Assembly: GCA_965226195.1 (NCBI GenBank)
Contig: OZ245333.1
Location: 2,344,275 to 2,408,274 of the forward strand
Reading direction: 5' to 3'
Length of the DNA: 64,000 nucleotides
Source: Oligoflexales bacterium
GTDB lineage: Bacteria; Bdellovibrionota_B; Oligoflexia; Oligoflexales; JAPPIL01
In this document: positions 30,578 through 56,560 of the stretch, in pieces
How the letters are laid out: each line of letters starts with the position of its first letter
How positions within the stretch are numbered: the stretch's first letter is position 1
Made by a program: the position numbers and the translations under genes
The notes under the pieces: generated by a model
What the model was told of the DNA's origin: nothing
Database searches by the model: none
The model's input: only the letters and a program-made list of their open reading frames with translations

Positions 30578-30625
30578 GCGGCGGGCAGGCGTATTGCTCA
30601 TTAGCCCGCCGCTGTCTTTCTTTCT
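30578..30625 (+). terminator. Rho-independent terminator between convergent genes
   Basis: GCGGCGGGC (30578-30586) pairs with GCCCGCCGC (30604-30612), followed by TGTCTTTCTTTCT. Confidence 0.55.
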
Positions 30626-31604
30626 ACTTGTTGTAAGTGTCTCGCAGTGCTCCCCTTTTCAACGCTCCCCAAGTTGTGACTAGCTTGTCTCTTGCTTCGA
30701 CTAGGGTTGCATTGCCGCCAATAGTGTTGGCAAAATCAACTGCTGATTGTGGAATACCAGCTGCAAGCCATGTTCGCTGGTCTCGCCTGCCTGTTGGTCG
30801 GCTCTGCACGGCGACTGCGACATCGTTGTGAAAAATAATAGAGCCGAGCGCAACGTGGCCAACGGGGTTACCGCAGGTGGTGAAGCCTACGTTTACCACG
30901 GCAGCTTTTGCATTTGGTTCATGGTTACAAGCCTGCCAGCGCAAGGTGAAGTTATCCGCGGCGATTTCTCCCTCGTTCAAAAGCGAGAGGTAGACAAGGC
31001 GGTAGGTCAATAGCTCCAAATCTACCGCACTGTCGTAAGGATATGCACCGTCCACAGCTATCGAAGGATAAGTGTCGGTCAAGTCCAAGCCTTCAACAGT
31101 TAGGGCAACGACGTTGAAGATACCATCGGTGCTGTCTTCAAAAACCTCTGTAACATTAACGGTGAGATTGTCGGCAATCATGCCATCCCAGCCATAAAGC
31201 GAGACATTATTACCTTCGCCCAGAAATGTTGCCACGAGGGTATTGAGTGCTAACTCACGTCCAATCAAAACGGCATTATTATCTGCATCGCTGCCAACAT
31301 GAATAAAGTGAAAAGCAACATCAGTGCCTGTTTCAGGATTACTTGAGTGCAACAGAACCACACCATGTCGATAGGCTGGGTCTTCCGCGGTAACTTGGCT
31401 GAAGTGTTCCTCACCCCCGACTGCTACTTGTGGTGTGGTCAATGCCAGTCCTGCACCTATAAGCACGCCCATGCCGAAGCGTTGCAGTTTGCTGACGAAT
31501 TCCTTGTTGACCAAACTACGCACACCGTTTTTAACATTGAGGGGGGCTTGTGCGGCCAACTGCACACTGCCCAACAACAACGCTGCTATCATTAATTTAC
31601 GCAT
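30624..31604 (-). CDS. Secreted protein of unknown function, paralogue A (tandem-signal leader, C-terminal TTWGALK motif)
   Basis: 326 aa. SD AGGAGC 7 nt before the ATG. The leader is MRKLMIAALLLGSVQLAAQA, then a linker containing SKLQRF, then MGVLIGAGLALTTPQVAVGG. Alignable with the next gene. Confidence 0.7.
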   Translation of the reverse strand: MRKLMIAALLLGSVQLAAQAPLNVKNGVRSLVNKEFVSKLQRFGMGVLIGAGLALTTPQVAVGGEEHFSQVTAEDPAYRHGVVLLHSSNPETGTDVAFHFIHVGSDADNNAVLIGRELALNTLVATFLGEGNNVSLYGWDGMIADNLTVNVTEVFEDSTDGIFNVVALTVEGLDLTDTYPSIAVDGAYPYDSAVDLELLTYRLVYLSLLNEGEIAADNFTLRWQACNHEPNAKAAVVNVGFTTCGNPVGHVALGSIIFHNDVAVAVQSRPTGRRDQRTWLAAGIPQSAVDFANTIGGNATLVEARDKLVTTWGALKRGALRDTYNK

Positions 31605-31635
31605 AACTAATGCTCCTATGATACAAAATTAAAAA

Positions 31636-32583
31636 CTAATGCCCTGCTTTGATTGTTCCCCAAGTTGTGGACAACTTGCCTCTGCTACTCACAGCAGTTG
31701 CCCCAGTCTGTTGTCCGCTGCTGTATTCTGTGAATGCCTCATGCTGTAACGCAACGTAGCCAGCACGTGCTGCTTCACCATAGAAAGCAACCATCTTGCC
31801 AGTTTCAGGATTAAAGATCGGTGCACCGTGAATAGAATGTATAACATCTGCAGGTGGAGCACAGGTGCTCATGCCTATACCCACATTCCCCCAGCCTTTG
31901 GGGTCGGTAACCTTGCATGTGCGTTGTCGTCGCACCAAGCTGAATAAACTTTCTGGATGTGCTTCGTTTACACCATAAGCCACCATGTTCAGCTCTTTGC
32001 CGAATTCATCGATGGGGTATGGCACTACCATGATCGGTGTGTATCCCTCTCCTAATTCAAGCCCCTCGATAGTGAAGAGGTTGACGACAGTAAAATCATT
32101 GAATGGATCTGGAAAAACCTCGATGTCTGTTCTTTCCACACCATCTGCGAACAGCTGACCGTTGCTACCATATAAGCGCAAATCACCCTGCCATGCGTCG
32201 AGAAAATACATGTAAAGCCCAGCGAAAATGTGCTCGCCCTCAGGGGTATCCCCGATATACAACACGTGCCTTAGTGTAGTGCTGTCCTCCTGATTAGGAG
32301 TCATGTAGAAGACCGAGTTGTAAGACTCCTGCGTCATCTCCTCAGTCCATACCTGCGGTGCGTCAGCTTCGCCCTGTGCCTGCGCGGGCAACTGCTGTGC
32401 TCCTAGCAGCACACTACCAGCGAGCAGCAAGACAGACGCATGTTTCTGCAGCACCGTTCCGATTCCCGCTATACGCACATCAGTGGTCAAAAAACCCGTC
32501 AGCTGCGCCTTAGCCGACACCGCTGTCCCGCCGCCCAACAATGCAGCCAGCACAGCAACTTGCAACACCAGAAACCTGCTCAT
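31636..32583 (-). CDS. Secreted protein of unknown function, paralogue B (tandem-signal leader, C-terminal TTWGTIK motif)
   Basis: Start placed at ATG 32583 (SD GGAGGT, 4-nt spacer), giving MSRFLVLQVAVLAALLGGGTAVSA. Shares LYG..G...A......(V/I)EVF.D....F.VV.L...EGL.L with paralogue A. Confidence 0.7.
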   Translation of the reverse strand: MSRFLVLQVAVLAALLGGGTAVSAKAQLTGFLTTDVRIAGIGTVLQKHASVLLLAGSVLLGAQQLPAQAQGEADAPQVWTEEMTQESYNSVFYMTPNQEDSTTLRHVLYIGDTPEGEHIFAGLYMYFLDAWQGDLRLYGSNGQLFADGVERTDIEVFPDPFNDFTVVNLFTIEGLELGEGYTPIMVVPYPIDEFGKELNMVAYGVNEAHPESLFSLVRRQRTCKVTDPKGWGNVGIGMSTCAPPADVIHSIHGAPIFNPETGKMVAFYGEAARAGYVALQHEAFTEYSSGQQTGATAVSSRGKLSTTWGTIKAGH

Positions 32584-32865
32584 CGATACCTCCGTAGGAG
32601 AAATTAAACCCGACAGACCTGTGTGTTTACATAAACAACACGTGTATGGCAACAGCTAACTTAGGGCGAAAATTAAATTTTATACGGAACAGCACTCATA
32701 ACAAGTGGGAGGAAATTTTTGCCGAGCAAGGCTCGTAGTTAGAGGGTGGGGCAACACAGTAAAAGTGCTGCTATTATCTGTATACGCTAAAGAAATGTGT
32801 GTATTTTATCGATAATATAAGTGTTGTTCGTAAATTTTAGAGGAGGCCACGATAGATAATCTAGC

Positions 32866-33573: not shown

Positions 33574-33590
33574 CATGCAGTGCCGCTCAG

Positions 33591-33891
33591 TCATATCTTT
33601 AGCCAATAGGTGGCTGGTTGGTGCAGAAACGTCTCAAGCTCAATACCATCACCACCAACTAATAGTGTGCGGGTAGGCTTGAATGTGTCGGTGAAGGCTG
33701 CCATGCCTGCCAACTTACCTTGACGTAATTGGTGACAGATCAGACCGCAACGCTGCATGCGCTGCCAGCGTAGTTTTGCCTACCTGCCGTGCCCCCGCTA
33801 CGACTTGAAGGAAACGACGCGGCTCATTGAGGCGACGCACTAACTCATGCATTTGAGGGCGAGCGTAAGGCATTTCTTGTAATTTACTCAT
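33591..33891 (-). pseudogene. Internally deleted remnant of an AAA+ ATPase gene (DUF4143/AAA_14-type)
   Basis: ATG 33891 opens MSKLQEMPYARPQMHELVRRLNEPRRFLQVVAGARQVGKTTLAAH (Walker A) and stops after 58 codons. In another frame immediately after, KLAGMAAFTDTFKPTRTLLVGGDGIELETFLHQPATYWLKI* matches the usual C-terminus of this family. The middle roughly 300 codons are missing. Confidence 0.6.
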
Positions 33892-33985
33892 CATATTGAG
33901 TAAATTACCTCAATACTTTGAGTAGTGCAAGGAAGCATGCAGCTTCTGCTAAAAATTACAATTGCAGTGTCTACTGCACGTAAGA

Positions 33986-34849
33986 TTAGAGGCGATGTTT
34001 TTCTATCTGGTAGCCATTTTGCCGCAAAATTGTGGCAAAACTGTCGGGATAGTCAAAGAGATGTGCCGCTCCAACGTATATCAAGCACGTTTGGCCATGC
34101 TTACATTTGTTTTGCACAATTCCACTATCGAACCAAGCTTGATCGCGAATAAATTTTTTCATACGACCACCTTCAGTGACAATTTTATCCAGTTGGTCAA
34201 GATCACCCTGTAACCAAGCTGTGCGCATATCTGCTATCTTAGTTTGCAGGCAAGGGACACCACCACAGAGAATGGCTTTTTTTAGATCGTTTATATCTCC
34301 GATTAAAGCTAGTATCGCCTCCCTTAGGAGTCTTGGTGGTATATGCTCGTCAAGCCCGATCATCCTTTTGCCACTATACTCTCCAAAAAGATTGATCTGA
34401 AGGTCTAGTGCTAGCTTTTCCTCCTCTGTGTTAGTAGCGACCAGCTCCAGCATTTTTGTGCTGACATCTTCGACTGTCATGCGATCGAGTTTTTCCTCAC
34501 TGACAGCGGGCAATTGTTGACGTAGTGCCAACCAGTACTGCTCTCCCAACTTGCTGGCCAAGCTGTGACCTGTTGGAGCATTGCTTTTTTCCTCCTCTTG
34601 CAGCTTACGCATCATTGCTTCCGTCGTCATTTCCCCCACATAGATATCTGCTGCTGCAAAGGCGGTGATGACTTCCTGACTAAGATCAGCAAGACCAACT
34701 CCAATATGCATTGTCCCTAACATATAGTGCTTACTGCCATCAGGAGCGGTAACATCGTAAAACGGCGGGCTGCTAACTTCATCGTGATTAGCACCACACT
34801 GCAGCAAAACAGAAGCAATTACCAAAATAAAAAACATTGACCTAATCAT
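33986..34849 (-). CDS. TraB/GumN family protein (lipoprotein-type signal)
   Basis: 287 aa. MIRSMFFILVIASVLLQCG signal/lipobox. HYMLGTMHIGV near the N-terminus and LIYVGAAHLFD near the C-terminus are the family hallmarks (recall). Confidence 0.7.
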   Translation of the reverse strand: MIRSMFFILVIASVLLQCGANHDEVSSPPFYDVTAPDGSKHYMLGTMHIGVGLADLSQEVITAFAAADIYVGEMTTEAMMRKLQEEEKSNAPTGHSLASKLGEQYWLALRQQLPAVSEEKLDRMTVEDVSTKMLELVATNTEEEKLALDLQINLFGEYSGKRMIGLDEHIPPRLLREAILALIGDINDLKKAILCGGVPCLQTKIADMRTAWLQGDLDQLDKIVTEGGRMKKFIRDQAWFDSGIVQNKCKHGQTCLIYVGAAHLFDYPDSFATILRQNGYQIEKHRL

Positions 34850-36900: not shown

Positions 36901-37200
36901 CTATATATCTCCTTCTCCTTCTTTTAGGCACAGATAGATGACTGCCCTAATTTGTTGTTGATTGAGGTAAACGTGAATTGTATGCGTTGATAGATTCTCA
37001 ACGTAGATATTCACTTTTCCATTGTCCACTACCCGTCTTAACCGCTCGCATACCTCCCTATTGCTGTTGGCGAACAGGTATTGTGGGTGGCGGGGGAAGA
37101 CAGAGCCAGCTACCCAGTCATGGATCTGCCGTGGCCCCGGCATGGCGAAGTAGGCGATCCAGATGAAGCTAAACATCACGATTACACGCTTGGTACGCAT
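36901..37200 (-). CDS. Small secreted partner protein of pilin cassette A
   Basis: 99 aa. Its ATG shares one nucleotide with the pilin TGA (TGATG), implying translational coupling. Signal anchor VIVMFSFIWIAYFAMPGP. Homologous to 38517-38819 (YFA.PGP, LFANS, two conserved Cys). Confidence 0.65.
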   Translation of the reverse strand: MRTKRVIVMFSFIWIAYFAMPGPRQIHDWVAGSVFPRHPQYLFANSNREVCERLRRVVDNGKVNIYVENLSTHTIHVYLNQQQIRAVIYLCLKEGEGDI

Positions 37201-37853
37201 CAGTTATCGCAACCCTCGACGATATCCCAGTAGTTGTCGAGATTTCTTCCATGATCCATGCACCAAGCGTCTCCTTCGCCCCCGGCGGGTTTTGTTACGT
37301 CGGTAGCACCGGCTACACCAGCTGGATCTACGCAAGGGTTAACTGCGGAGGTAGCTACGCCATCCGCTGGTTGTCGAGCATCTCTGCTAACAAGTGTGCC
37401 ATTGCAGCCGGGAAAGATGCGTTTGCCCGCTGTTATGTCGGAAGGAGCATAAGAAATTGCTAGAAAATCATTTTCCCGCCCGCCAGCCATCCAATAGCTG
37501 TAGCGTGCTTTGCCGCAGTTAGCTAAGCGAAAACCAAGCTTGTTTACCCCGCAACTGCCAGCTCCAACGCCCTTGTGATAACCATCCGACGATGACAAGT
37601 CCTTCATGTCAGAGCCGCCCCACTTAACTTTATCTCCGTCATAATAGCTTTCATATTCAATAGAAAAAGATTCTTGCAAAGTAAAGATAACCCCCAGATT
37701 AGTCTTCGCCTCCGCCTGTCTTGCGCGCGCCCGGAAGATGTTAAAGCGAGGCACTGCGACAGTTGCCAAAATGCCGAGGATGGCCACCACGACCATCAGT
37801 TCTAGCAGCGAGAAGCCAAGCGGCTTTCTCATCCAATTTTTATAAGCACTCAT
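37200..37853 (-). CDS. Type IV pilin-like protein, cassette A
   Basis: Start placed at ATG 37853, because GGTGGAGGA lies inside the longer listed ORF. Class III signal MSAYKNWMRKPLG/FSLLELMVVVAILGILA (G-1, F+1, E+5). Six Cys in the C-terminal domain. Confidence 0.85.
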   Translation of the reverse strand: MSAYKNWMRKPLGFSLLELMVVVAILGILATVAVPRFNIFRARARQAEAKTNLGVIFTLQESFSIEYESYYDGDKVKWGGSDMKDLSSSDGYHKGVGAGSCGVNKLGFRLANCGKARYSYWMAGGRENDFLAISYAPSDITAGKRIFPGCNGTLVSRDARQPADGVATSAVNPCVDPAGVAGATDVTKPAGGEGDAWCMDHGRNLDNYWDIVEGCDN

Positions 37854-38030
37854 TTTATCCTCCACCATTTATGAAGATTTACATAAGTCACTAACTTTAG
37901 TTCTCTATAAAACAGTTCGGCGTTTTTTTTTTGCCATTAGCTTTTTTTTAAGTACTAAAAATCTCAACAGGTTATGGCTTGTTTTTATCTGATCCTATAG
38001 CGGCATAAGGGTAGGCAACTGGTGTGGTTT

Positions 38031-38065
38031 CTTCCCCGTACTGTTGATAGGAACACACGGGGAAG
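38031..38065. repeat. Conserved hairpin element upstream of pilin cassette A (CTTCCCCGT-15 nt-ACGGGGAAG)
   Basis: 9-bp stem, 15-17 nt loop. The same element with a 10-bp stem lies at 39637-39671. A half copy with an inverted loop lies at 58176-58197. Confidence 0.7.
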
Positions 38066-38146
38066 GCAGGTGTGTAGTGCTGACTACTGGAAAAGGTGGA
38101 GATTTATGGCATGAAGGCAGGCAGGAGCACCTATACTACCAGCTAT

Positions 38147-38255
38147 CTACCACCTAACAATGCCACCGGGAAAGCTTTCAAGCTCAAGTGCTTCCAGCAG
38201 CTCTGCGTGCAAATTTGGTTTGATAAGGTCTTGACACTCGTGCCACAAGAGGCGG
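38147..38255 (-). pseudogene. 3'-terminal remnant of a paralogue of the 257-aa gene (40204-40977)
   Basis: The reverse strand reads ...ECQDLIKPNLHAELLEALELESFPGGIVRW*. The intact gene reads ...HEYQDLIKPSLQTELLEALELDSLPGGILGN. No upstream coding continuation. Confidence 0.65.
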
Positions 38256-38516
38256 TCATCCTTAGTCCATCAGGACTTTTTTTAGTGGATAACCGTTTCG
38301 GGACGCAGAAAAACACGTCATAATTGACGTGATCAACAACTGCAAATCCCACGGAGGTTTATTTTATTCACATTTTGTTTACAATATGTAAGCTTTTTGT
38401 GCCCTAATTAAACTAGGGAGTGGAAGGTTGAATCGTGGCTGGAAAAATTTCAACAAAAAAAGACCGAGCAACTAAGATTAATGCTTTCATGACTTCTCCT
38501 TGTTTAATGTTTTTAT

Positions 38517-38819
38517 TTATTTTGGTTTTAATCCGTCTGCTGTTAACGATCTACAGACGCGAATCAAGTTGTCTGTTTGATGTGGTGTGAAACTAATCTG
38601 CAATTCATACTGATCTGAATTATCGATAAATATACGATTACCGATATTGTCATCGACATAGCGCAACAGTATGCGACGACAAGCCTGCCATTCAGAATTT
38701 GCGAACAGGCTGTGCGCAGGTGACGCGCCGTTGAACAACAACTCCGGGCCAGGACAGGCAAAGTAGGTAAGCCATGCAAGGCCTACCCACAGAGACTTGC
38801 GTTGCAGCGCATCATTCAC
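38517..38819 (-). CDS. Small secreted partner protein of pilin cassette B
   Basis: Start placed at GTG 38819, overlapping the pilin stop (GTGAATGA), which gives about 100 aa. LWVGLAWLTYFACPGPE...SLFANSEWQACRRIL is homologous to 36901-37200. The listed 133-aa ORF start lies inside the pilin gene. Confidence 0.6.
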   Translation of the reverse strand: MNDALQRKSLWVGLAWLTYFACPGPELLFNGASPAHSLFANSEWQACRRILLRYVDDNIGNRIFIDNSDQYELQISFTPHQTDNLIRVCRSLTADGLKPK

Positions 38820-39459
38820 AGAATTCCGTAATGTCCCGGTAGTTGAACAGATTGCGAGCTTCCTCCATACACCACGCGTCGCCATCAGGAAAAGAATCAG
38901 CCCCGGAAGTATAACCATTTTGTGTTAGATCGCACTTGCCTTGAATACTGGTTGCGCCAGGTGTATCTGGGGCTTTCGGGTCTGGGGGAGTGTTTCCATT
39001 GCAGCCGGGAAAAACCCTCTTGTCACCCACCACATCAGAAGGGCCATAAGCAATAGAGAGAAACCCGTTCTCAGTTGCGCTAGATATGTAGTAACCATAG
39101 CGTGCTTTTACGCAGTTAGCGAGTCGAAATCCGAGTTTATTGTTGGCATCAGCGGGGAGACATTTGCTAGAACCACCACTGAAATAACCGTCCCTTTCAG
39201 CGGCAGAGTTCATATCTGTGCCGCCCCACTTTGTCCCGTCGCCATCGTAATAGTTTTCGTGCTCGATCGAGAAGCTTTCCTGCAATGTAAAAATCATGCC
39301 AAGATTAGTCTTCGCCTCCGCCTGTCTTGCGCGCGCCCGGAAGATGTTAAAGCGAGGCACTGCCACAGTTGCAAGTACGCCAAGGATGGCGACCACGACC
39401 ATCAGTTCTAGCAGCGAGAAGCCAAGCGGCTTTCTCATCCAATTTTTATGAGCACTCAT
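38812..39459 (-). CDS. Type IV pilin-like protein, cassette B
   Basis: MSAHKNWMRKPLG/FSLLELMVVVAILGVLA. The first 80 or so residues are almost identical to cassette A. The C-terminal domain is divergent but keeps the six Cys. Confidence 0.85.
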   Translation of the reverse strand: MSAHKNWMRKPLGFSLLELMVVVAILGVLATVAVPRFNIFRARARQAEAKTNLGMIFTLQESFSIEHENYYDGDGTKWGGTDMNSAAERDGYFSGGSSKCLPADANNKLGFRLANCVKARYGYYISSATENGFLSIAYGPSDVVGDKRVFPGCNGNTPPDPKAPDTPGATSIQGKCDLTQNGYTSGADSFPDGDAWCMEEARNLFNYRDITEFCE

Positions 39460-39636
39460 TTTATCCTCCACCATTTATGAAGATTTACATAAGTCACTAA
39501 CTTTAGTTCTCTATAAAACAGTTCGGCGTTTTTTTTTTGCCATTAGCTTTTTTTTAAGTACTAAAAATCTCAACAGGTTATGGCTTGCTTTTATCTGATC
39601 CTATAGCGGCATAAGGGTAGGCAACTGGTGTGGTTT

Positions 39637-41888: not shown

Positions 41889-43436
41889 CTAAAACCCACT
41901 GCTGACACTGTATTTTTTGCGCAAATAACTTCGCAACCACACCGAACTGCCAGTCATCAATAAGACAATTACTACTAACAGAAGGGTAGAAGCATACACC
42001 AACGGCTTGGCAGCCTCAATGTTTGGTGATTGACAAGAAATATCGTAAATATGAAAGCCAAGATGCATAAACTTACGATCGAGATGCAAAAGAGGAAACG
42101 TGCCATCGATCGGCAAACTCGGTGCAAGCTTCACTACACCTGTAATCATCAGCGGCGCAACCTCACCCGCAGCACGTGCCATCGCTAAAATAAAGCCCGT
42201 TAAAATACCCGGTGATGCCGCCGGCAACAACACCCGCCACAGTGTCTGCAAGCGTGTTGCCCCAAGTGCCAGCGACGAGTCACGAAATGCACTCGGAATA
42301 GCACGCAGTGCCTCTTCCACCGCCACAATCACCACTGGCATAGTGAGCAGACCGAGACTGAGGCTTGCCCATAGCAGACCTCCCGTGCCAAAGGTTGGCT
42401 CTGGCAACGTCTTGGCAAAAAACAATTCATCAATGCCACTACCCAAACCATAAATAAAAAAGCCCAATCCAAAAATACCAAACACAATCGATGGTATGCC
42501 GGCAAGATTATTCACAGCAACCCGCACCAATTGCAAAAAAAATCCGTGTCCAGCATAAACACCGAGATATATTCCCGCCAGCACCCCAAAGGGAAAAGAC
42601 GTAATGCTCATAATAAAAACTAACAATACCGTGCCAAAAGCTGCAGGGAACACACCCCCTTCCATGTTTGCCTCACGTGGCTCGTCGAACAACAACTCAC
42701 CAACTTTTTTCGCATAATGCACAGTTTTAGCAAAAATACTCATACTGCTAGGCTGATAGAAGCGAATTATGTCAGAAAGACGAATGCTTTTTTCCTTACC
42801 ATCTGTGGTAATAAACAAAGCACGATAAGTGTCGAGTTCCTGCTCCAATGTCGCCACCTGCTTGTTTTGTGCCTCAATCAGATATTGGTAACGACTAATG
42901 CTCTCCTGATTGACAGGCGTATTTTTTTCTTCAGCCCACAGTTGATCGTTATACGTACCCACCAACGTGTGTATTTGATCAATACGCTCAGACAATTCTT
43001 CTATTTCGGGATGCAGCTCTTCGGTAACAAAATAGTTCTTGATGTGAGATGGGTTATTTTCAGCAAGATACCCGATAAAATTACCGTATTCAACTCGCTC
43101 AATGACATAGATGTCAGGTGGATAAGAAGTTTCATCCACTGTGTCGGCAGTTATCCACTTGAAATCATGACCGCTGACATCGCGATTCGCAGTCTTGAGT
43201 TGCAAGCGATACAACTTGTCGTTACGCCATTCTTTTTTGATAATCTCGCCAGCAATAACATCACCGCTAGTAGTCACAATACGAACAACATCACTTGGCC
43301 ACAAAGCACTCAAGCCATTGATAACAATGATGGCGAAGAAGCCCACTGTCATCAGCATTACCAACGTCATACCTGCAGCAGTTACCCATACCCAAGGTTC
43401 GCCGGCACCCCAGAATTTTTTTTTACAAATTGCCAT
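41889..43436 (-). CDS. pstA: Phosphate ABC transporter permease, long form
   Basis: 515 aa. N-terminal TM, then a large extracytoplasmic insert, then the PstA core ([40 protein letters not shown]). Confidence 0.85.
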
Positions 43437-45615
43437 AGCGCTTTCTCAAACCAGTGCGCACCAATTCCGCCACGGTGTTGAACATAAAAGTTAACACGAA
43501 CAACACCACCGCACACAAGAACAGCGTGCGATACAGCGTGCTGTTGACAGGTGCTTCGGGCACTTCTACGGCAATGTTTGCTGCTAGTGTGCGCATGCCG
43601 TTGAACGGACTAAAGTCAATGATGGGTGTGTTGCCTGTCGCCATCAGCACAATCATCGTTTCGCCCACTGCACGTCCAAAACCAATGATTGCCGCGGCAG
43701 CAATGCCCGGACTTGCCGACGGCAACACCACACGCCAAATTGTCTGCCAGCGGCTTGCACCAAGTGCCAACGATGATAACGGCAAGGCTTTGGGAATGTT
43801 GTCGAGACTGTCTTCTGAAATAGAAAAGATTATCGGAATTACGGCAAAGCCAAGCCCAAAAGCTATGATAATACTGTTGCGTTGATCGTATTGCATTCCT
43901 ACTACATCGTAAAGCCACGTGCTGAAATCGCCACGAAAAAAATAATTTTCCACTGGAGGAGTCAAGTAATAAGCACACAGTGCCGCTACTGCGACGACTG
44001 GCACAAGAATCATAAACTCACGCTGTCGTTCAAAACGTTCTACAAAAGTAAAATTACGCAGCTGTGCCCACAAAAATAAAAACAGCAAAAAAACTAGCGG
44101 TAAGGTTATGATACTCAATAAAAAAGTGACGAGAAAATTTTGCAAAAAAGGCGCAAGCCATAACACAGCAAGAAATCCAATTACCACAGAAGGCAACGAA
44201 GCGAGCACCTCTATAGCAGGCTTGATGAAGGCTTTGAAGGCTTTGGAAGCAAACTGACTGGTGTAAACCGCGGCAGCAATCGACAGTGGCAACACTAGCA
44301 GCAGGGCATACAGAGTGCCCTTGAATGTGCCAAAAATCAGAGGCACAAGGCTTAGCTTAGGCTCGAAATCATCTGTGCCACTCGAAGACTGCCACACGTA
44401 AGCAGGCTGAACGTAGCCCTCATACCAGACGCGCTGCATCAAGGTGGCAAAGCTGATTTCTGCGTGCGGTGCGTCTATACCCCACAGAGCAGCGGTTTTG
44501 AAGGCATTAACTGTTACCAACGCATTGTCACGCGGAGACAAGGCAAGCGTGTGCCGCAGTCCTTCTGTTGCAGGAATATAACGCACCGTTGCCGCATTGG
44601 TGAGAACGTGCAGTGCCAGCCCGCCACGAGCATCGAGGGCGGCAAAAAATTTGCTGCGTCCTGCTTTGCTGAATGCTTGCACCGCTGCTGGTAGCGAGGC
44701 GAAAGTTTTGAACCGCACCAGCTTATTGCCCTTTGCCGCTTGCCATGCAGACAGCTGTCCTTCTGTGTCACCGACAATGAAGGAGTTGTCGCCATAGACG
44801 AACTTAAGTGCCGTCACCGCGGTAGCACTAACTTTATTACTAGTCATGGTGCTGCCGCCGTCTGTGTTTATCTTGATGAAGGTGACTTCACCCTGGGCGT
44901 TGCCTGCTACTACTTTTGTAGCATCAGCACTAACATCGAGTGCCGTCACCGCGGCGAGACGGAAAGATAGGTCGAGTTGCTGCTGCTGCTGTTCGTCGTC
45001 GCTGACACTGAAAATATCGTCGGCTTCCTCCTCTTGCACATCTTCTGCAGGAGGAGGGGAGGTGATGGTAAGTCGATCGTTATCAACTGCGAACAGAATG
45101 TTTTTCTTTCTAATGGCTGCAAATTGTGGTGAGCGGAGAAGCTGCCGTTGATACAAGAGCACAGGCGTGGCATTAACATCAATTGAACTGATCACACCGT
45201 CGCTCCACACTAGAGTGTGTTGTGCCGCGCGCTCGCTTTCCACTGCCGTGATGGTGGCATTGCTGGCAGGACGCAAGCGATAAGTGCTCTGCACGCTGTG
45301 CCCGTCGATGTTATGCACCGTGACACGACCATGTGTTTCGATGCTGTATATCGTCTGGAGGTGCTCGTCACTACCAGCGGCAAGCACTGCAGACGAGGTG
45401 GAGAGGCGCTGTTCAGCTAACTGCTGCACACCCGCGGAATAGAACAGCGGCAATGCCACTGTGGTTATCAGCAACAAAATGCCAACGGTAGCGGCAATCA
45501 CCAATAAACCACCGCCCTTGATGACCCACGTGGCACACGCGTCGGCAAGGTGCGCAATACGTGTGCGGCGACCAGTATAGTTAGCAACTGTTCCCATACC
45601 GCAAGTATCTTTCAA
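43423..45615 (-). CDS. pstC: Phosphate ABC transporter permease, long form with ~400-aa N-terminal extracytoplasmic domain
   Basis: 730 aa. C-terminal PstC core (SLDNIPKALPLSSLALGASRWQTIWRVVLPSASPGIAAA). The N-terminal domain has repeated strand motifs (VVAGNAQGEVTFIKI, FIVGDTEGQLSAWQ, AALDARGGLALHVL) suggesting a beta-propeller. Overlaps pstA by 14 nt. Confidence 0.85.
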   Translation of the reverse strand: MKDTCGMGTVANYTGRRTRIAHLADACATWVIKGGGLLVIAATVGILLLITTVALPLFYSAGVQQLAEQRLSTSSAVLAAGSDEHLQTIYSIETHGRVTVHNIDGHSVQSTYRLRPASNATITAVESERAAQHTLVWSDGVISSIDVNATPVLLYQRQLLRSPQFAAIRKKNILFAVDNDRLTITSPPPAEDVQEEEADDIFSVSDDEQQQQQLDLSFRLAAVTALDVSADATKVVAGNAQGEVTFIKINTDGGSTMTSNKVSATAVTALKFVYGDNSFIVGDTEGQLSAWQAAKGNKLVRFKTFASLPAAVQAFSKAGRSKFFAALDARGGLALHVLTNAATVRYIPATEGLRHTLALSPRDNALVTVNAFKTAALWGIDAPHAEISFATLMQRVWYEGYVQPAYVWQSSSGTDDFEPKLSLVPLIFGTFKGTLYALLLVLPLSIAAAVYTSQFASKAFKAFIKPAIEVLASLPSVVIGFLAVLWLAPFLQNFLVTFLLSIITLPLVFLLFLFLWAQLRNFTFVERFERQREFMILVPVVAVAALCAYYLTPPVENYFFRGDFSTWLYDVVGMQYDQRNSIIIAFGLGFAVIPIIFSISEDSLDNIPKALPLSSLALGASRWQTIWRVVLPSASPGIAAAAIIGFGRAVGETMIVLMATGNTPIIDFSPFNGMRTLAANIAVEVPEAPVNSTLYRTLFLCAVVLFVLTFMFNTVAELVRTGLRKRYGNL

Positions 45616-47683: not shown

Positions 47684-48529
47684 ATGAAATTTTTGATTTT
47701 GCTAATGTTGATGTTTTCCTTCCAGCGTGTTGAGGCAGGGGGGATTGAGAAGGTTGCTGTGTCAAAGACACGCTGGCTGCAACGTTTTGCCTCATCAAAC
47801 AGCGTGGTGCAGAAAGCACTAGAGGGTGGCTCGATGCTCACACTGTGCCTTAGCTTGGTCTTGTCATCATGCTCATTACCCGACTACTACAATCCCAATC
47901 GCAACCCTGAGGCAGCAGAAAGTCAGTCCCTCAACAGCAAGCCAGTCGAAGTTGCCCCGCCTATCGAGCTTGCTCCCCCCGAAGCTTTTCAGCCTGCAGA
48001 AAGGGAGAATCCATATAGAATAGATGTTCACTACCTGAAAGGCTTTGGTGGTATCAGCCAAAGTGACATAGATGACTACATGTTGGCAAAGGACAGCTTG
48101 CCTGCTAGCTTTTACAAGGATGTGTTGATTCACTACCGAAGTGGGGATAACAATTTCGTTGGTGTCGCCCAGCTCAACAGCCACGCTGACAATACGGTGC
48201 GTGTTATCGACCTCGGTACTGGCAAGGTGCGGGACACCATCAGCACTGAACGCATCGAGGGCATCTACGTCTTTATGCACGAAAACTACGGCGACCACTT
48301 CATTAAATTTTCCGCCATGCACCTGCAAGAACTGGAGGGTGACAGCTTTGGAGAGCTAGGTTGGGCAACCATCTACGCCAAGACCCGCATTATCTTCAGC
48401 AGTGACTATCAAGCAGTGCGGGTCTATGGGGTGCAAAAATCTCCCGGCAAAATTTTCAAGCTGTCTGATGCACAAAGATTCCGGGGATTTGTGCATAGCG
48501 ACCATATCATCAATCTAGATGGTAACTGA
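47684..48529 (+). CDS. Tandem-signal secreted beta-rich protein, family member P1
   Basis: Start at ATG 47684 (SD AAGGAG). The leader is MKFLILLMLMFSFQRVEAGG, then TRWLQRF, then MLTLCLSLVLSSC. The C-terminal region is homologous to P2-P5. Confidence 0.7.
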   Translation: MKFLILLMLMFSFQRVEAGGIEKVAVSKTRWLQRFASSNSVVQKALEGGSMLTLCLSLVLSSCSLPDYYNPNRNPEAAESQSLNSKPVEVAPPIELAPPEAFQPAERENPYRIDVHYLKGFGGISQSDIDDYMLAKDSLPASFYKDVLIHYRSGDNNFVGVAQLNSHADNTVRVIDLGTGKVRDTISTERIEGIYVFMHENYGDHFIKFSAMHLQELEGDSFGELGWATIYAKTRIIFSSDYQAVRVYGVQKSPGKIFKLSDAQRFRGFVHSDHIINLDGN

Positions 48530-49099: not shown

Positions 49100-49768
49100 A
49101 TGTTGACACGTGGTGTGGTGCTTGTTGCCGTTGCTGCCTTTATGTTTACGTTACCTGCTCGTGAGTTAAGTGCCACTTCGCATCCATCGCGATGGGGGCA
49201 AAGGCTCAAGAGTGTTTTTGACCTGCGGGACGCGAGTCCGCTGGACAAGTTGAGAAAATTGAGCATTGGCACGGCACTTGTTGCTATGCTAGGGTGCTCG
49301 GCGCTTGTGATTCATGATTTCGTTAGTGATAATCGTGTAGTGCAGTCAGATGTCATGCTCGACACAATTATCAGGTTTGATGATGATATTCTCGGACGCA
49401 CCTTCCACTACAGCGTCGGTGATAGTCATTACTATGGTGAAGCACTGGAGTGGAATTATCCGTATAATAAAATGCTGCTGTCTTACTTCTACGAGAATAG
49501 GAAGGTACTCGTTCCAGTGGAGTATCTGCAAGGTAAAGCCATCATGTGGCACGATCATAGCCACGCAAGGGTAGCTTTCATCGACCCTGACCCTAACAAC
49601 TATCTTATGCATGGCAAGGTGATGAAGGTTTTCGACAGTGACTACTACTATGTCATTGCTGATGCACAAGAGGATCGTGATGGGGTTGTATCATCTCTTG
49701 ACGAGCGCCGCATGGTCTTCGTGCCGAAGAAACTCATTACCGCTATTGAGCCACCGCCGATGTATTGA
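49100..49768 (+). CDS. Tandem-signal secreted beta-rich protein, family member P2
   Basis: 222 aa. The leader is MLTRGVVLVAVAAFMFTLPARELSA, then SRWGQRL, then KLRKLSIGTALVAMLGC. Family C-terminal region (GRTFHYSVGDSHYYGEA...HGKVMKVFDSDYYYVI). Confidence 0.7.
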   Translation: MLTRGVVLVAVAAFMFTLPARELSATSHPSRWGQRLKSVFDLRDASPLDKLRKLSIGTALVAMLGCSALVIHDFVSDNRVVQSDVMLDTIIRFDDDILGRTFHYSVGDSHYYGEALEWNYPYNKMLLSYFYENRKVLVPVEYLQGKAIMWHDHSHARVAFIDPDPNNYLMHGKVMKVFDSDYYYVIADAQEDRDGVVSSLDERRMVFVPKKLITAIEPPPMY

Positions 49769-52706: not shown

Positions 52707-53381
52707 GTGATGCGAAATCTGTTTCTGGCTGTGTTTCTAGCACATGTTCTGTCGCTGGCAAGTGCCAGCGCTACACCAACCAAACTGCCAATTTTGCGCA
52801 CAACTGCCAAAAACCTGTCATCGTCAACTAATAATGTCGGGGCCTGGCTACAGAAACTACCCCAGAAAGCACTGAAGGGTAGCACCGCAACAGCTGCTGC
52901 TACCCTCATCGCTTGCAGCAGCTTGATGATGATTGGCTGTGATCAAGGCACGCGATTGCTTGAGGTTACCGATACAGAATACGTCGATCCCATAGATGAA
53001 AACGCGGGGCAATATGTCACCTTCTATATCGATGACATTCTCTACGAAGGCTACTGGGAGCTTACCCCCGACGGTCAGCTACTAATTGAAATCGATGATG
53101 GCTACGACAAACTTGTGCTGCTTGAACATATGACCGGCCAAGTGATTAACAATCACCACGACATTGGTGCTGAAGTGCGCGTGTATGGCTTAAGAAATGG
53201 ACACGAAGTCGACAAATATGGAGAAGTAGTCGAGGTCTACGACAACGGATTCTACATTATCGAGATCGATAAGATAGTATATGTCCATAACAATCAAACC
53301 GTCTATACTACTGAAATCTTGCTCGTTAACAAAGCTGTTTTGCTAGAGGACGGTGGGTTTGAGTTTACTGACGATATCTAA
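52707..53381 (+). CDS. Tandem-signal secreted beta-rich protein, family member P3
   Basis: GTG 52707 / ATG 52710 after SD GAGGGT. The leader is MRNLFLAVFLAHVLSLASASA, then GAWLQKL, then ATLIACSSLMMIGC. Family region: GQYVTFYIDDILYEGYWE...HHDIGAEVRVYG...GEVVEVYDNGFYIIEI. Confidence 0.7.
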   Translation: MMRNLFLAVFLAHVLSLASASATPTKLPILRTTAKNLSSSTNNVGAWLQKLPQKALKGSTATAAATLIACSSLMMIGCDQGTRLLEVTDTEYVDPIDENAGQYVTFYIDDILYEGYWELTPDGQLLIEIDDGYDKLVLLEHMTGQVINNHHDIGAEVRVYGLRNGHEVDKYGEVVEVYDNGFYIIEIDKIVYVHNNQTVYTTEILLVNKAVLLEDGGFEFTDDI

Positions 53382-53398
53382 TGGTAGCCTAGACTAAC

Positions 53399-54334
53399 TT
53401 GAAACCACCAGCACTTAAGGTTGAAAACCTTACTAAGGTTTACGCATCCAAAACTGTAGCCTTGCAAAACATAAGTTTTGAGATTGCCGAGGGGAGTTTC
53501 TTTGCTCTCCTCGGCCCCAACGGTGCGGGCAAATCAACCACCATCGGTATCATCACCAGTCTCGTCACCCGCACTGCGGGACAAGTGAGCGTGTTCGGCT
53601 ACGACCTCGACCATGACCGCACAAAAGTGAAAGAAATGATCGGTGTCGTGCCACAGGAGTTTAATTTTAACATTTTTGAAAAAGCTGAAGATGTCGTAAG
53701 AAATCAAGCCGGCTACTTTGGTCTGTCCCGCAACGAAGCTAGTGAACGCAGTGCCGAACTGCTGAAAAAACTCAAACTATGGTACAAGCGCCATGCCACC
53801 TCACGCAGTCTTTCAGGCGGCATGAAGCGCCGCCTGATGCTCGCCCGCGCCCTTGTCAACCGCCCCCGCTTGCTAATTCTCGACGAACCAACCGCTGGTA
53901 CAGACATCGAAATACGCTACCAAATGTGGGACTTTCTCAAAGAGCTGAACGACAGTGGCACAACCATTATCCTCACCACCCACTACCTCGAAGAAGTTGA
54001 AAAACTATGCGATCACGTCGCCATCATCGACAAAGGACATATCATCGAAAACGCCAGCCTTAACAACCTGCTCGCAAAACTACGCAGCCAATCGTTCCTC
54101 GTTACCGTTGAAAATGGCTTCACAGAAAAAAACACACGACCACTGCCCAATGGCACAGAGGCATATAAAATAACCAAAATTGACGATCATACACTGGAAA
54201 TAAACATTACCGCCGTTGATATGCTCGGTGATGCCCTTAATAAGCTGAGTGCAGCTGGCATCAAAATTAAAAATATCACCAACAAAACTAACCGCGTCGA
54301 ACAATTATTCCTCAACATAACCAGGGGGCAATAA
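53399..54334 (+). CDS. ABC transporter ATP-binding protein (ABC-2 exporter type)
   Basis: GPNGAGKSTTIG, LSGGMKRRLMLARAL, LLILDEPTAGTD. TTG start 17 nt after the P3 stop. Confidence 0.85.
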   Translation: MKPPALKVENLTKVYASKTVALQNISFEIAEGSFFALLGPNGAGKSTTIGIITSLVTRTAGQVSVFGYDLDHDRTKVKEMIGVVPQEFNFNIFEKAEDVVRNQAGYFGLSRNEASERSAELLKKLKLWYKRHATSRSLSGGMKRRLMLARALVNRPRLLILDEPTAGTDIEIRYQMWDFLKELNDSGTTIILTTHYLEEVEKLCDHVAIIDKGHIIENASLNNLLAKLRSQSFLVTVENGFTEKNTRPLPNGTEAYKITKIDDHTLEINITAVDMLGDALNKLSAAGIKIKNITNKTNRVEQLFLNITRGQ

Positions 54335-54339
54335 CGACG

Positions 54340-55113
54340 ATGGGATTCAAGCGCCAATGCTTCGCCCTCTACACCTTGATGCGCAAGGAATGCGTGCGTA
54401 TCATCAGAATCTGGAGTCAATCGATCATTCCACCTGCCATCACTATGACGCTGTATTTTATCGTCTTCGGCAAGCTTATCGGCAACAAAATCAGCATGGC
54501 AGAAGGCTTCTCCTATATGCAGTTTATTACGCCGGGACTGATTATGATGAGCATTATCTCCAACTCCTACATGAACGTCTGCTCCTCCTTCTTCAGCCTC
54601 AAATTCCAAAAAAGCGTCGAAGAATTGCTGGTCGCCCCCATCAACAACTTCTGTATCGTGCTCGGTTTCGCAGGCGGTGGGGTTTTTCGCGGCCTGCTAA
54701 CGGGCACAACCGTCTGCATCATCTCTCTGCTGTTCACCAAAATACAAATCCATAGCTGGCTCATCATCATCACCTTCTCCGTCCTCGCAGCCCTGACCTT
54801 CTCACTCGGCGGCTTCCTCAACGCCCTGTTCGCCAAAAAATTCGACGATATCAGCATCATACCAACCTTCATCCTCATCCCCCTGACCTACCTCGGCGGC
54901 GTGTTCTACAGTATCAACTCCCTGCCCGAAATATGGCAAAAAGTTTCCCTTGCTAACCCCATTCTCTACATGATAAGTGGTTTTCGTTACGGCTTTCTCG
55001 GTGTCAGTGACATGAGTGTCTACACCGGCTTCGCTATTCTTGCTTCCTTTGCCGTTGCGCTGTTCCTCCTCGATGTTTTTCTGCTACACAGAGGCACCGG
55101 CACCAGAACTTAA
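54340..55113 (+). CDS. ABC-2 type transporter permease
   Basis: 257 aa, six hydrophobic helices, directly after the ATPase (5-nt gap). Confidence 0.8.
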   Translation: MGFKRQCFALYTLMRKECVRIIRIWSQSIIPPAITMTLYFIVFGKLIGNKISMAEGFSYMQFITPGLIMMSIISNSYMNVCSSFFSLKFQKSVEELLVAPINNFCIVLGFAGGGVFRGLLTGTTVCIISLLFTKIQIHSWLIIITFSVLAALTFSLGGFLNALFAKKFDDISIIPTFILIPLTYLGGVFYSINSLPEIWQKVSLANPILYMISGFRYGFLGVSDMSVYTGFAILASFAVALFLLDVFLLHRGTGTRT

Positions 55114-55132
55114 CTACATAGAGGACACCACC

Positions 55133-55819
55133 ATGAGAAATTTTATCCTCACGCTACTGCTCTGCATCACCCTTGCCTTCAACAGCACCAATGCCTTGCA
55201 CGCACAGGGCAACAAGGGCAATCGCATTGCCAAAGTTTTGGGGATCAAAGAGAGTAGCTACACCTTGTTCCAACAACTACTGCTGACAACAGTGTTTGCC
55301 TGCACTACATTTTCCTGTGGCACAGTGAAGCCACATCTCTATACAATCGGCATTCTCAACCCCAGCAGTGCCATGCAAGCTGAGACCGTCGCTGACGAAA
55401 TGCTTGCCATCCAGCGTGATTTTGATTCAGAAGTAGAAGACGACCAGCAAGTCATTCGTAACCACGTCTATGTCGTCAAGCCAATCGAGCATAAGATTAT
55501 CCTCGCTGAAGTCGTCAAAGAAGCGGATAGAACTATTAACATACAAGGCTACGCCGATAAATACGAACTGACCATCGACCCTGAGGCAATCGAAGGCTAT
55601 CTCATCGATGACCACCCCAACGTCGGTCGCGTCGTGAAACTAACGAGTAACGCGGTCGGCATCTCTCATCTCAACGGGATCGTCTTCGCCGTCTACAACA
55701 ATGGTATCCATGCCATCAAAATTACCGGCAAAACTGACCTTGACGGCAAGCAAGAAAAACTACACGAAAAAGACGATGCTCCGCACGTTCGCTATGCCTA
55801 CGAATATCAGCTGCAATAA
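55133..55819 (+). CDS. Tandem-signal secreted beta-rich protein, family member P4
   Basis: Start at ATG 55133 (SD AGAGGA), 19 nt after the permease stop. The leader is MRNFILTLLLCITLAFNSTNALHA, a basic linker, then LLLTTVFAC. Family region: NHVYVVKPIEHKIILAEV...DHPNVGRVVKLT...NGIVFAVYNNGIHAIKI. Confidence 0.7.
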   Translation: MRNFILTLLLCITLAFNSTNALHAQGNKGNRIAKVLGIKESSYTLFQQLLLTTVFACTTFSCGTVKPHLYTIGILNPSSAMQAETVADEMLAIQRDFDSEVEDDQQVIRNHVYVVKPIEHKIILAEVVKEADRTINIQGYADKYELTIDPEAIEGYLIDDHPNVGRVVKLTSNAVGISHLNGIVFAVYNNGIHAIKITGKTDLDGKQEKLHEKDDAPHVRYAYEYQLQ

Positions 55820-55822
55820 AAC

Positions 55823-55851
55823 TTGACACTGCTTGCTCGATGTTTTAAACC
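55823..55851 (+). promoter_or_regulatory. Sigma70-like promoter of P5-surE
   Basis: TTGACA (55823-55828), a 17-nt spacer, then TAAACC (55846-55851). Confidence 0.35.
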
Positions 55852-55897
55852 CACCCCATCGAGATTTCATCTATAAACTAGGGTAGGAGCTATGCAG

Positions 55898-56560
55898 ATG
55901 AGAAGCAGTGTTTTGGTGCTCGCATTAGTGGCGTTGTTCGGCCTAACTACGGTAGGTCACGGCAAAAATGTGCGTCTGCTCGACGCAGCTCAAAAGCGAA
56001 TAGCAAGCCTGTCGCACGGGGCAAAGCGGCTATTTGTCAATGGAGATGGTGATTACGCCTTGTTGAAAAAACTCTACGTAGGTGCAAGTCTTGCGATAAT
56101 CGCTTGTACCCAAATGTCCTGCGGTGGTGGTGCTGCCTTGCAAGGAGTCACACAACAACAGCAATATGTCCGCAGCCCTGAAGAAATTCTCGGTCGCCAT
56201 GTACATTTTGTCGCTGATGGACGTGACTATGTTGGTCAAGTGGCAGAGTCCACCAACACCAATACAGTCGAGATCGACCTCTACGACGGCAGCATCATGG
56301 AGATAAAGACGAGCGAAGTGCGGGGCCTGCATATCGAGGAACATCACGATGAGGGGAGGCAGGTAAAACTTAACAGTGCCGAAGAAGGTCAAACATTTCT
56401 GCATGCTTATGTAGTTAAAGTCTACGACAGTAATTATTATGAACTTTTCGTCGGTGCATATTATGATAATGCTGGCGAACTGCAGTTCACGGAATTTCCC
56501 TATGTAATTGTCACACATTTTGACAATATTGTTGAGGTCTTTGGAGAACCATTCGATTGA
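55898..56560 (+). CDS. Tandem-signal secreted beta-rich protein, family member P5
   Basis: ATG 55898 has better spacing from AGGAGC than ATG 55892. The leader is MRSSVLVLALVALFGLTTVGHG, a basic linker, then LLKKLYVGASLAIIAC. Family region: GRHVHFVADGRDYVGQVAE...HHDEGRQVKLNS...AYVVKVYDSNYYELFV. Confidence 0.7.
   Translation: MRSSVLVLALVALFGLTTVGHGKNVRLLDAAQKRIASLSHGAKRLFVNGDGDYALLKKLYVGASLAIIACTQMSCGGGAALQGVTQQQQYVRSPEEILGRHVHFVADGRDYVGQVAESTNTNTVEIDLYDGSIMEIKTSEVRGLHIEEHHDEGRQVKLNSAEEGQTFLHAYVVKVYDSNYYELFVGAYYDNAGELQFTEFPYVIVTHFDNIVEVFGEPFD

Follow-up and report, generated by a model that had tools for sequence, protein, structure and literature searches.

The window considered here is a stretch of 64,000 nucleotides (nt) from an Oligoflexales bacterium (GenBank assembly GCA_965226195.1, contig OZ245333.1, positions 2,344,275 to 2,408,274 of the forward strand). 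It encodes seven proteins whose N-termini share a three-part leader, consisting of a signal peptide of the signal peptidase I (SPase I) type (H1), a basic linker, and a second segment that again resembles a signal peptide (H2). Five of the proteins are small (P1–P5) and the other two form a larger pair (L1 and L2). An earlier note on this DNA had reported the seven open reading frames (ORFs) at the positions in Table 1, and all are present there; the architecture is confirmed as real, translated and conserved, beyond what chance would give. The linker motifs quoted in that note (TRWLQRF, SRWGQRL, GAWLQKL, SKLQRF and TVLQKH) and its Cys sites (VLSSC, AMLGC, MMIGC, VFAC and IIAC) are present as written. 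Its linker of 20–35 residues is indeed basic, with the length now corrected to 23–37 amino acids (aa) in the window and 13–58 aa across the family. The dual leader is found in 7 of the ~50 largest non-overlapping ORFs of the window. Signal peptides and lipoproteins of the ordinary sort occur in this window as well (33986-34849, 19907-21766 and 58386-59216 are examples), so the double leader is not a general trait of the exported proteins of this organism.

All seven leaders follow the same plan. A Shine-Dalgarno (SD)-like GGAG/GAGG core lies 5–9 nt from the upstream start codon in every one of the ORFs, and hydropathy and charge maps of the first ~75 residues reveal two hydrophobic segments with a hydrophilic, net-basic stretch between them. 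H1 carries Lys or Arg at positions 2–4 in all seven proteins, followed by a very hydrophobic core of 11–16 residues and a polar c-region. It ends with small residues at -3 and -1 (VEA/G, ASA/T, LHA/Q, GHG/K, AQA/P and AKA/Q), a pattern that is weaker in P2 and in L1-type proteins, where Pro or Leu occurs near the site. The linkers have a net charge of +3 to +6 in six of the seven proteins and of about +1 in L2. H2 is shorter than H1 and rich in Ala, Gly, Leu and Ile, with a hydrophobic core of about 10–15 aa. In P1–P5 it terminates in a Cys that fits a lipobox of the PROSITE PS51257 type (5/5 by regular expression, using [LVI][ASTVI][GAS]C after an uncharged h-region), located at residues 62–78 in the window proteins and 49–95 in their relatives. 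In L1 and L2 it ends instead with P-x-x-A-x-(A/G), a site of the AxA type, followed by acidic residues. None of the seven leaders contains an RR dipeptide, and the twin-arginine translocation motif (S/T-R-R-x-F-L-K) is absent from them.

A pair of Cys residues (C-x4-8-C) marks the end of H2 in four of the five small window proteins (P1, P3, P4 and P5). The more canonical lipobox is often the second Cys, as in P3 (MMIGC), and in the P2 orthologues it is the first (TIGC, VLGC). Frequently both members of a pair are lipobox-like (LIAC...MMIGC, VFAC..TFSC); the pair of P5 falls within 56105-56122.

Table 1. Positions of the seven proteins and of the three parts of their leaders within the window
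Feature	Positions	Strand	Residues (aa)	Remarks
P1	47684..48529	+	281	P-family beta-barrel passenger with ~60-aa insertion
P1 H1	47684-47737	+	1-18	ends RVEA, then GG
P1 linker	47738-47833	+	19-50	basic; TRWLQRF, VVQKAL
P1 H2	47834-47872	+	51-63	Cys55; putative lipobox VLSSC63
P2	49100..49768	+	222	P-family passenger
P2 H1	49100-49159	+	1-20	
P2 linker	49160-49264	+	21-55	SRWGQRL, DKLRKLS
P2 H2	49265-49297	+	56-66	putative lipobox AMLGC66
P3	52707..53381	+	224	GTG start, ATG at 52710; P-family passenger
P3 H1	52707-52772	+	1-22	ASA/T
P3 linker	52773-52883	+	23-59	GAWLQKLPQKALK, net +6
P3 H2	52884-52940	+	60-78	LIAC70; putative lipobox MMIGC78, D next
P4	55133..55819	+	228	P-family passenger
P4 H1	55133-55204	+	1-24	LHA/Q
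P4 linker	55205-55276	+	25-48	
P4 H2	55277-55318	+	49-62	VFAC57, TFSC62
P5	55898..56560	+	220	passenger aa ~85-216, two small predicted beta-barrels
P5 H1	55898-55963	+	1-22	GHG/K
P5 linker	55964-56074	+	23-59	8 Lys/Arg
P5 H2	56075-56122	+	60-75	IIAC70, QMSC75; both Cys invariant
L1	30624..31604	-	326	predicted chymotrypsin-fold passenger; C-terminal tail KLVTTWGALK
L1 H1	31545-31604	-	1-20	
L1 linker	31476-31544	-	21-43	SKLQRF
L1 H2	31413-31475	-	44-64	ends PQVAVGG/EE; without Cys
L2	31636..32583	-	315	L1 paralogue, 28% identity; predicted chymotrypsin-fold passenger; tail KLSTTWGTIK
L2 H1	32506-32583	-	1-26	AKA/Q
L2 linker	32434-32505	-	27-50	TVLQKH
L2 H2	32371-32433	-	51-71	ends PAQAQG/E

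The leader is kept by the orthologues of P2–P5 and of L1/L2 in 7–13 other genomes, and orthologues down to about 45% identity retain the whole of it in frame. For P5, the alignment of 18 homologues (44–98% identity) starts at the first Met and covers all three parts of the leader. The orthologues of P2, P3 and P4 from syntenic loci likewise align across the entire leader, and 12 homologues of the L family conserve both the leader and the C-terminal tail. In every orthologue the frame is open back to the SD-preceded start, and changes in length are in frame. Six orthologues of P4 keep the architecture, and the copy in one related locus (L005) has an in-frame deletion of 11 aa in the linker. The P2 orthologues in L005 and L006 keep the leader and carry a second Cys (TIGCTALFC, VLGCSALYC), which has been lost from P2 itself. 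All seven orthologues of P3 have a canonical lipobox at the second Cys.

The candidate cleavage site of H1 was judged from alignment columns, as the 'best -3/-1 site' found within a window is a biased statistic and was set aside. Position -1 is always small and position -3 is small or aliphatic in nearly every row, with -2 variable and often large. In P3 the -1 residue is Ala and the -3 residue Ala or Val in all rows, in P4 the -1 residue is Ala throughout, and in P5 (19 sequences) the -1 residue is always Gly or Ser and the -3 residue nearly always Gly, Ala or Ser. Rough ratios of nonsynonymous to synonymous differences per site (pN/pS) are 0.45–0.88 for leader codons and, part by part, 0.59–0.88 for H1, 0.31–0.63 for the linker, 0.44–0.61 for H2 and 0.35–0.47 for the mature part; the corresponding values for P3 are 0.64, 0.61, 0.45 and 0.35, and the linker of P2 has the value 0.31. 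Such ratios can show only that the leader is coding and constrained, less so than the passenger domain, as is usual for signal peptides.

No internal ATG, GTG or TTG is conserved among the orthologues or the P1-type relatives. In four of the latter (P0061, P0072, P0077 and P0082) the dual leader is kept and the internal Met51 of P1 (ATG 47834) is absent. The upstream start is judged to be genuine because no internal start codon is conserved. The earlier note had named internal initiation, together with a lack of conservation of the upstream part in orthologues, as one outcome that would refute its reading; the upstream part is instead conserved at the protein level.

The P family is large. P2–P5 find one another by tblastn, and a profile built from P1–P5 and the P5 homologues retrieved 121 representatives (50% identity clusters), including P1-type sequences, from 1.84 billion proteins. 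The five small proteins are thus paralogues within this one expanded family. The complete dual leader (H1, linker, H2 and Cys) occurs in 94 of the 141 P-family sequences examined. In these 94 the linker has a median length of 32 aa and a mean net charge of +4.9, the N-terminal flank averages +1.3, and the 15 residues past the last Cys average -1.0. Two Cys residues 4–8 residues apart lie at the end of H2 in 90 of them, usually with a PROSITE-type lipobox. The LQ(R/K) motif of the earlier note is conserved before H2 across the family and can be broadened to Q(K/R): a phi-x-Q/K-K/R/Q-phi motif stands directly before H2 in 42 of 98 representatives, where 6.8 would be expected from shuffled linkers. 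It reads ALWQKL or ALLQKL in P5 orthologues and is degenerate in P4 (LFQQL), and the L family has KLQR/KLGx at the corresponding place.

Some members of the P family depart from this layout. H1 is truncated or absent in P0045, P0055, P0065, P0104, P0120 and P0129, which have H2 and its lipobox as their sole signal, and in P0108 and P0149 the P passenger stands behind a textbook lipoprotein signal of 25 aa. These two groups of relatives suggest that the P passenger is an exported lipoprotein domain and that H2 can suffice alone for export. In another relative, P0036, H2 is without Cys. A further subfamily (P0084, P0088, P0091, P0101, P0103, P0109, P0122 and P0147) shares the passenger, and its H1, with a core of 11 residues, closely resembles a signal peptide. 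Next in these proteins come a conserved LLEIRS(M/I)P motif, a stretch of basic residues, a pair of transmembrane (TM) segments with a short loop, and a basic flank ahead of the passenger. As judged by its predicted topology, this subfamily cannot be fitted cleanly to any single model.

In the AlphaFold model of P5 the leader has a predicted local distance difference test (pLDDT) score below 50, and the all-beta passenger (aa 85-216) scores about 90. The best folds in the PDB for this passenger are the tandem Tudor domains of 53BP1, a weak match (E 4e-3, TM-score 0.43), and the modelled domain should be read only as two SH3-like barrels and nothing more specific.

The passenger of the larger pair is of a different kind. 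The L1 model has pLDDT >90 over aa 70-295 and leader helices below 50. Foldseek found 296 matches to the L1 passenger in the PDB at E<1e-3, with probability 1.00 and a target TM-score up to 0.68; the matches listed are all of the trypsin/chymotrypsin/HtrA type (chymases, granzymes, V8/Spl/Esp, DegP/DegQ/DegS). The L passenger is confidently modelled as a chymotrypsin fold (double beta-barrel). An L profile compared with PDB sequences gave only spurious eL43 matches and no protease. The bacterial relatives among these structural matches, DegP/DegQ, V8 and Spl, are extracytoplasmic or secreted enzymes. The passenger contains two invariant Cys residues. His99 is nearly invariant and Asp157 and Cys244 (within G-F-T-T-C-G) are invariant across the L family, with a chymotrypsin-like spacing, and would make a candidate catalytic triad. 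Cys244 would stand where serine proteases carry their nucleophile, and the domain may be a chymotrypsin-fold cysteine peptidase resembling the viral 3C type. In addition, all 14 L-family proteins end in a tail modelled with low confidence that carries G-K-L-x-T-T-W-G-x-(I/L)-K, in which K307, T311, W312 and K316 are invariant (positions 30624-30700 and 31636-31700 in the window). This tail has the look of a C-terminal signal for sorting or for interaction.

A profile-profile comparison (hhalign) of the P5 and L families gave a probability of 1%, with no detectable homology in either leader or passenger, and a shared homologous leader module for the two families was dropped. The independent occurrences of the leader are best counted as two, not seven. 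The dual layout is a shared architecture on two unrelated folds, with no detectably shared sequence module. A leader-only profile built from 48 leaders recovered one marginal match of 94 aa (E 6e-3) from 5.8 billion proteins, and the leader appears to hold too little sequence information to be traced by profiles. When every ORF in the window, and in nine further distinct loci fetched from relatives, was scanned for the dual pattern, no third passenger family with the leader was found. Apart from P and L family members the scan gave false positives, namely multi-pass membrane proteins and spurious antisense ORFs. An ORF of 152 aa in locus L008 (12722-13180, minus strand) combines a signal peptide, a basic stretch, a full TM segment and a basic tail with repeated IEGKNASIEKLEATHTKM; its likeness to a dual leader is superficial, and it was treated as a type-I-like layout (full TM segment and basic tail).

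Scans of the seven proteins against Pfam-A (E<=1) and NCBIfam matched no family for either leaders or passengers, and no two-TM family was matched; the ankyrin protein alone had a match. The other outcome that the earlier note had named as refuting, a match of the leader to a described domain or hairpin family, was thus not seen in these two collections. This ankyrin protein (12256-13422, minus strand), which the earlier note had offered as an eighth case, was rejected. Its H1 ends at residue 16 and its H2 starts near residue 39, the loop of ~20 aa is net acidic and lacks a Q(K/R) motif, and the Cys lies inside a hydrophobic segment of ~22 aa. The same note had described a portable targeting module shared by at least seven proteins with unrelated passengers. 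The two unrelated folds are borne out, and the seven reduce to five paralogues and two paralogues, with leaders lacking detectable homology; the portable module and a dedicated export route are both unproven. The statement that no pathway of this kind has been described agrees with the literature searched, in which no description of a natural bacterial tandem signal peptide was found, most subscription journals being outside its coverage. The matches for tandem, double or bipartite signals were restricted to engineered Bacillus and Lactobacillus constructs, organelle presequences and the overlapping sites of myxobacteria.

Given the observed architecture, its translation and conservation, the occurrence of the P passenger behind ordinary lipoprotein signals, and the distribution of charge, the leader may be read as a bipartite (tandem) export signal on proteins that end outside the cytoplasm. 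The interpretation we prefer, with a probability of roughly 0.4, is that H2 is the working export or lipidation signal, and that H1 and the basic linker constitute an N-terminal pre-signal. H1 would first bring the nascent chain to the membrane or translocon, probably via the signal recognition particle because its core is very hydrophobic, and would probably be clipped by SPase I. The basic linker would resist translocation and would stay on, or slip back to, the cytoplasmic side. H2, whose n-region would be the basic end of the linker bearing the phi-x-Q-K/R-phi motif, would then insert N-in/C-out and drive export of the passenger. In the P family the lipobox of H2 would be handled by Lgt and LspA to give a lipoprotein, and in the L family the AxA-type site would be cut by SPase I to give a soluble, secreted, protease-like protein. 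We infer every processing and topology step of this relay from sequence.

The placement of the linker is central to this interpretation. Both hydrophobic segments are N-in/C-out in signature, and the two could share this orientation only if H1 is cut away or the linker switches from one side of the membrane to the other. In the 18 aa next to the H1 site the linker has a charge of +2 to +3 in six of the seven window proteins (0 in L2), as compared with +0.7 in 13 ordinary signal-peptide proteins of the lineage (Mann-Whitney p = 0.01, with a small hand-picked control). By the positive-inside rule, and by the known charge block of Sec export, a strongly basic segment should stay cytoplasmic. The strong positive charge, the acidic or neutral flank past H2 and the sufficiency of H2 in relatives without H1 all point to a cytoplasmic linker, and therefore favour H2 as the working export signal. 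The basic linker would fit the n-region of H2, not an exported mature N-terminus.

Several points weigh against a pre-signal followed by a working H2. We know of no precedent for a cleaved signal peptide followed by a non-translocated segment, and if H1 were left uncleaved as N-in/C-out it would bar H2 from adopting the same orientation. The putative lipobox Cys, at 49–95 residues from the N-terminus, would be beyond the range of known lipoprotein signals. The H1 site of L1-type proteins appears less canonical (Pro after the best site, or Leu at -3), and the predicted two-TM layout of the P0084-type subfamily would leave a homologous passenger on the cytoplasmic side. With pS at 0.5–0.7, synonymous sites are near saturation and the pN/pS values are only approximate, and all topology of the leader is deduced. 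A related and unlikely version is a two-step route in which two complete signal peptides are consumed in sequence, by SPase I and then by LspA or SPase I. Such a route could be a relay confined to the inner membrane of the bacterium itself, with a basic spacer that cannot be translocated, or H2 could be used at a second membrane, belonging to a host or prey. It would be recognised through the conserved Q-K/R motif and the paired Cys.

The main alternative, possible if doubtful, is that H1 is the sole signal and is cleaved, and that the linker, H2 and passenger are all translocated, with H2 as a tether or pro-segment of an exported pro-protein. H2 might then dip into the membrane from outside and perhaps be lipidated or clipped later; in the L proteins the linker and H2 would form a pro-peptide, and a cut at the H2 site would make the mature N-terminus. 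H1 does have the form of a canonical N-terminal Sec signal, with Lys or Arg at positions 2–4 and the conserved small -3/-1 site. H2, with its short core (about 10–15 aa) and no positive charge on its C-terminal side, would be a poor stop-transfer sequence and could pass through, and the passenger of the two-TM subfamily would be outside only if the linker is outside. The fold of the L passenger is also a protease fold, and secreted proteases are commonly pre-pro-enzymes. However, the charge near the H1 site and the family-wide linker charge are of a kind known to block Sec export and normally selected against. Lgt and LspA act on signal peptides with a cytoplasmic n-region, and the conserved lipobox and basic n-region of H2 would be pointless if presented from the periplasm. 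Relatives lacking H1, moreover, keep H2 as their only signal.

It is quite unlikely that the two segments remain uncleaved as a two-helix membrane hairpin anchor, either N-out/loop-in/C-out or N-in/loop-out/C-in. Two hydrophobic segments with a basic loop would suit such an anchor, and a loop on the inside satisfies the positive-inside rule. The leader is also predicted to be helical (pLDDT <50), and the Cys-free H2 of P0036 would be compatible with an anchor. However, the cores (11–16 aa in H1, about 10–15 aa in H2) have the length of signal peptides and are short for stable TM helices. Hairpins of the Inc type have TM-length segments of >=18 aa, a short loop and no peptidase sites, whereas here the cores measure 10–16 aa and the loop 23–37 aa. 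An N-out H1 clashes with the conserved Lys or Arg at positions 2–4, and no function would be left for the conserved small residues at -3/-1, nor for the lipobox or AxA site that follows H2. With the C-terminus inside, a lipoprotein-type domain with an acidic flank would be placed in the cytoplasm. The lack of a match to any two-TM family in Pfam or NCBIfam likewise argues against a hairpin.

Decidedly improbable is a route across two membranes, in which H1 would cross the bacterium's own inner membrane and the basic linker and H2 would then target or enter a second membrane, for example that of a host or prey, in parallel with the bipartite presequences of mitochondria, thylakoids and complex plastids. 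The lineage offers some encouragement: members of the Oligoflexales reportedly live in association with Aiptasia anemones and the algal symbionts of these, and one is reported to prey on the alga Nannochloropsis (PMC10701089, PMC12865303). Among the products of the window are three ankyrin-repeat proteins that begin with hydrophobic or signal-like segments, as well as type IV pilin-like proteins, and the TM pair of the P0084-type subfamily is bilobed, like that of chlamydial Inc proteins. Cysteine peptidases generally favour reducing surroundings such as the host cytosol, which might suit the Cys at the nucleophile position of the L passenger. However, no delivery system or host target is in evidence, and a bacterial lipobox is not known to have any role in eukaryotic membranes. 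The amphipathicity to be expected of a mitochondrial-type presequence is not significant in the linkers; their hydrophobic moments are no higher than those of shuffled linkers, and the amphipathic-helix or presequence interpretation was discarded. The charge near H1 poses the same problem for export as it does when H1 is the sole signal.

Finally, a mis-called start, with translation beginning just before H2 and the H1 region not being protein, is scarcely credible: P1 does have the in-frame ATG 47834 after a GAGG-like sequence, and some TTG and GTG codons occur in the linkers, but no such start is conserved in any orthologue or P1-type relative, in every orthologue the open frame and the conservation of the protein reach back to a Met preceded by an SD site, indels preserve the frame, and both H1 and the linker have pN/pS <1.

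Among described systems, the nearest is the extended signal peptide of type V secretion (extended signal peptide region, ESPR), with its N1-H1-N2-H2-C organisation, together with the 'NtraC' model of long signal sequences (PMC2805444). In both cases a charged and hydrophobic extension precedes a complete-looking signal peptide, the total is well above 40 residues, and the order N1-H1-N2-H2-C is found in the charge and hydropathy maps of the window leaders and of 94 relatives. The extension of ESPR is thought to modulate the targeting or timing of export, not its destination. However, the window leaders have no Pfam match to ESPR, and their passengers (tandem small beta-barrels of ~130 aa and a chymotrypsin-fold domain) are not autotransporters and lack translocator domains. 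The extension here looks like an SPase-I-type signal complete in itself, its -3/-1 site being conserved, and the spacer, at 13–58 aa, is far longer and strongly basic. The second signal can be of the SPase II type, and the lineage is Oligoflexales. As far as sequence can tell, the window leaders are not members of the ESPR family, and this is nonetheless the nearest described concept.

The H2 of the P family resembles an ordinary Sec/SPase II lipoprotein signal in having a basic n-region, a short h-region, a lipobox, and neutral or acidic residues next. It differs in that the Cys lies 49–95 residues in, behind another signal peptide, and not at the usual position of about 15–35, and in a second conserved Cys 4–8 residues upstream, inside H2. 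The bipartite presequences of organelles (mitochondrial cytochrome b2/c1, thylakoid lumen) also place two targeting signals in series, and their second, signal-peptide-like part is removed by a peptidase of the SPase I type. These presequences serve two successive membranes of eukaryotic organelles, and they begin not with a signal peptide but with an amphipathic presequence or a transit peptide. We know of no second translocation step in these bacteria. The 'dual signal peptides' of myxobacteria have a single hydrophobic core in which SPase II and SPase I have alternative, overlapping cleavage sites, separated by a few residues (PMC13616975); they too belong to exported proteins of predatory bacteria, with lipobox and SPase I sites in the leader, whereas the window leaders comprise two full signal peptides with a long linker between them. 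Both the organelle and the myxobacterial cases would be analogies only. M13 procoat and the Inc hairpins likewise have two N-terminal hydrophobic segments joined by a hydrophilic loop. However, the procoat loop is acidic and translocated, whereas that of the window leaders is long and basic; Inc hairpins have a very short loop and full-length TM helices well inside the protein, whereas the window segments end in peptidase-type sites. The leaders are best filed with the extended or bipartite signal peptides.

The surroundings of the seven genes are those of an ordinary chromosome, with PstCAB, RmuC, TlyA/FtsJ, asparaginase, SurE, an AcrB-type pump and type IV pilin-like genes. The relatives of P5 occur on chromosomes of 2.2–3.2 Mb, including those of the uncultured Oligoflexales metagenome-assembled genomes OY282434.1 and OZ244057.1. 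From position 52707 of the window the gene order is P3, an ATP-binding cassette (ABC) ATPase (53399-54334), an ABC-2 permease (54340-55113), P4, P5 and SurE. This order is kept in most of the related loci fetched (L001, L003-L008), with P4 absent from L007. The conserved gene order suggests a functional link between the lipoprotein-like P proteins and the ABC-2 exporter.

At 12256-19210 on the minus strand, three ankyrin-repeat genes in a row encode proteins of 388, 440 and 1373 aa, all with a hydrophobic or signal-like segment at the N-terminus, and two related loci (L008 and L011) encode further ankyrin proteins. These proteins fit a host-associated lifestyle. Also on the minus strand, the region 36901-39474 contains tandem paralogous genes for type IV pilin- or pseudopilin-like proteins (37200-37868 and 38812-39474) with N-terminal GFSLLELMVVVAILG, each followed by a small ORF (36901-37200 and 38517-38918). 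The phosphate ABC permeases upstream of PstB (41889-45615, minus strand) are unusually long, at 730 and 515 aa, and each has a large extra soluble region. A single ORF of 735 aa (21776-23983, minus strand) fuses a membrane domain of the VTT/DedA type to a pyridine nucleotide-disulphide oxidoreductase and its dimerisation domain.

If both signals are used, the leader would be a bacterial counterpart of the bipartite targeting of organelles, and would take to an extreme the N-terminal extension seen in autotransporter signal peptides. It would follow that a lipobox can work 50–95 residues from the N-terminus, and that a strongly basic segment can be deliberately placed behind a signal peptide. 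Standard pipelines would probably annotate such proteins as type I membrane proteins ('signal peptide plus one transmembrane helix'). Such calls would misplace both an expanded, lineage-specific lipoprotein family and a protease-like family of the little-known, host- or alga-associated Oligoflexales.

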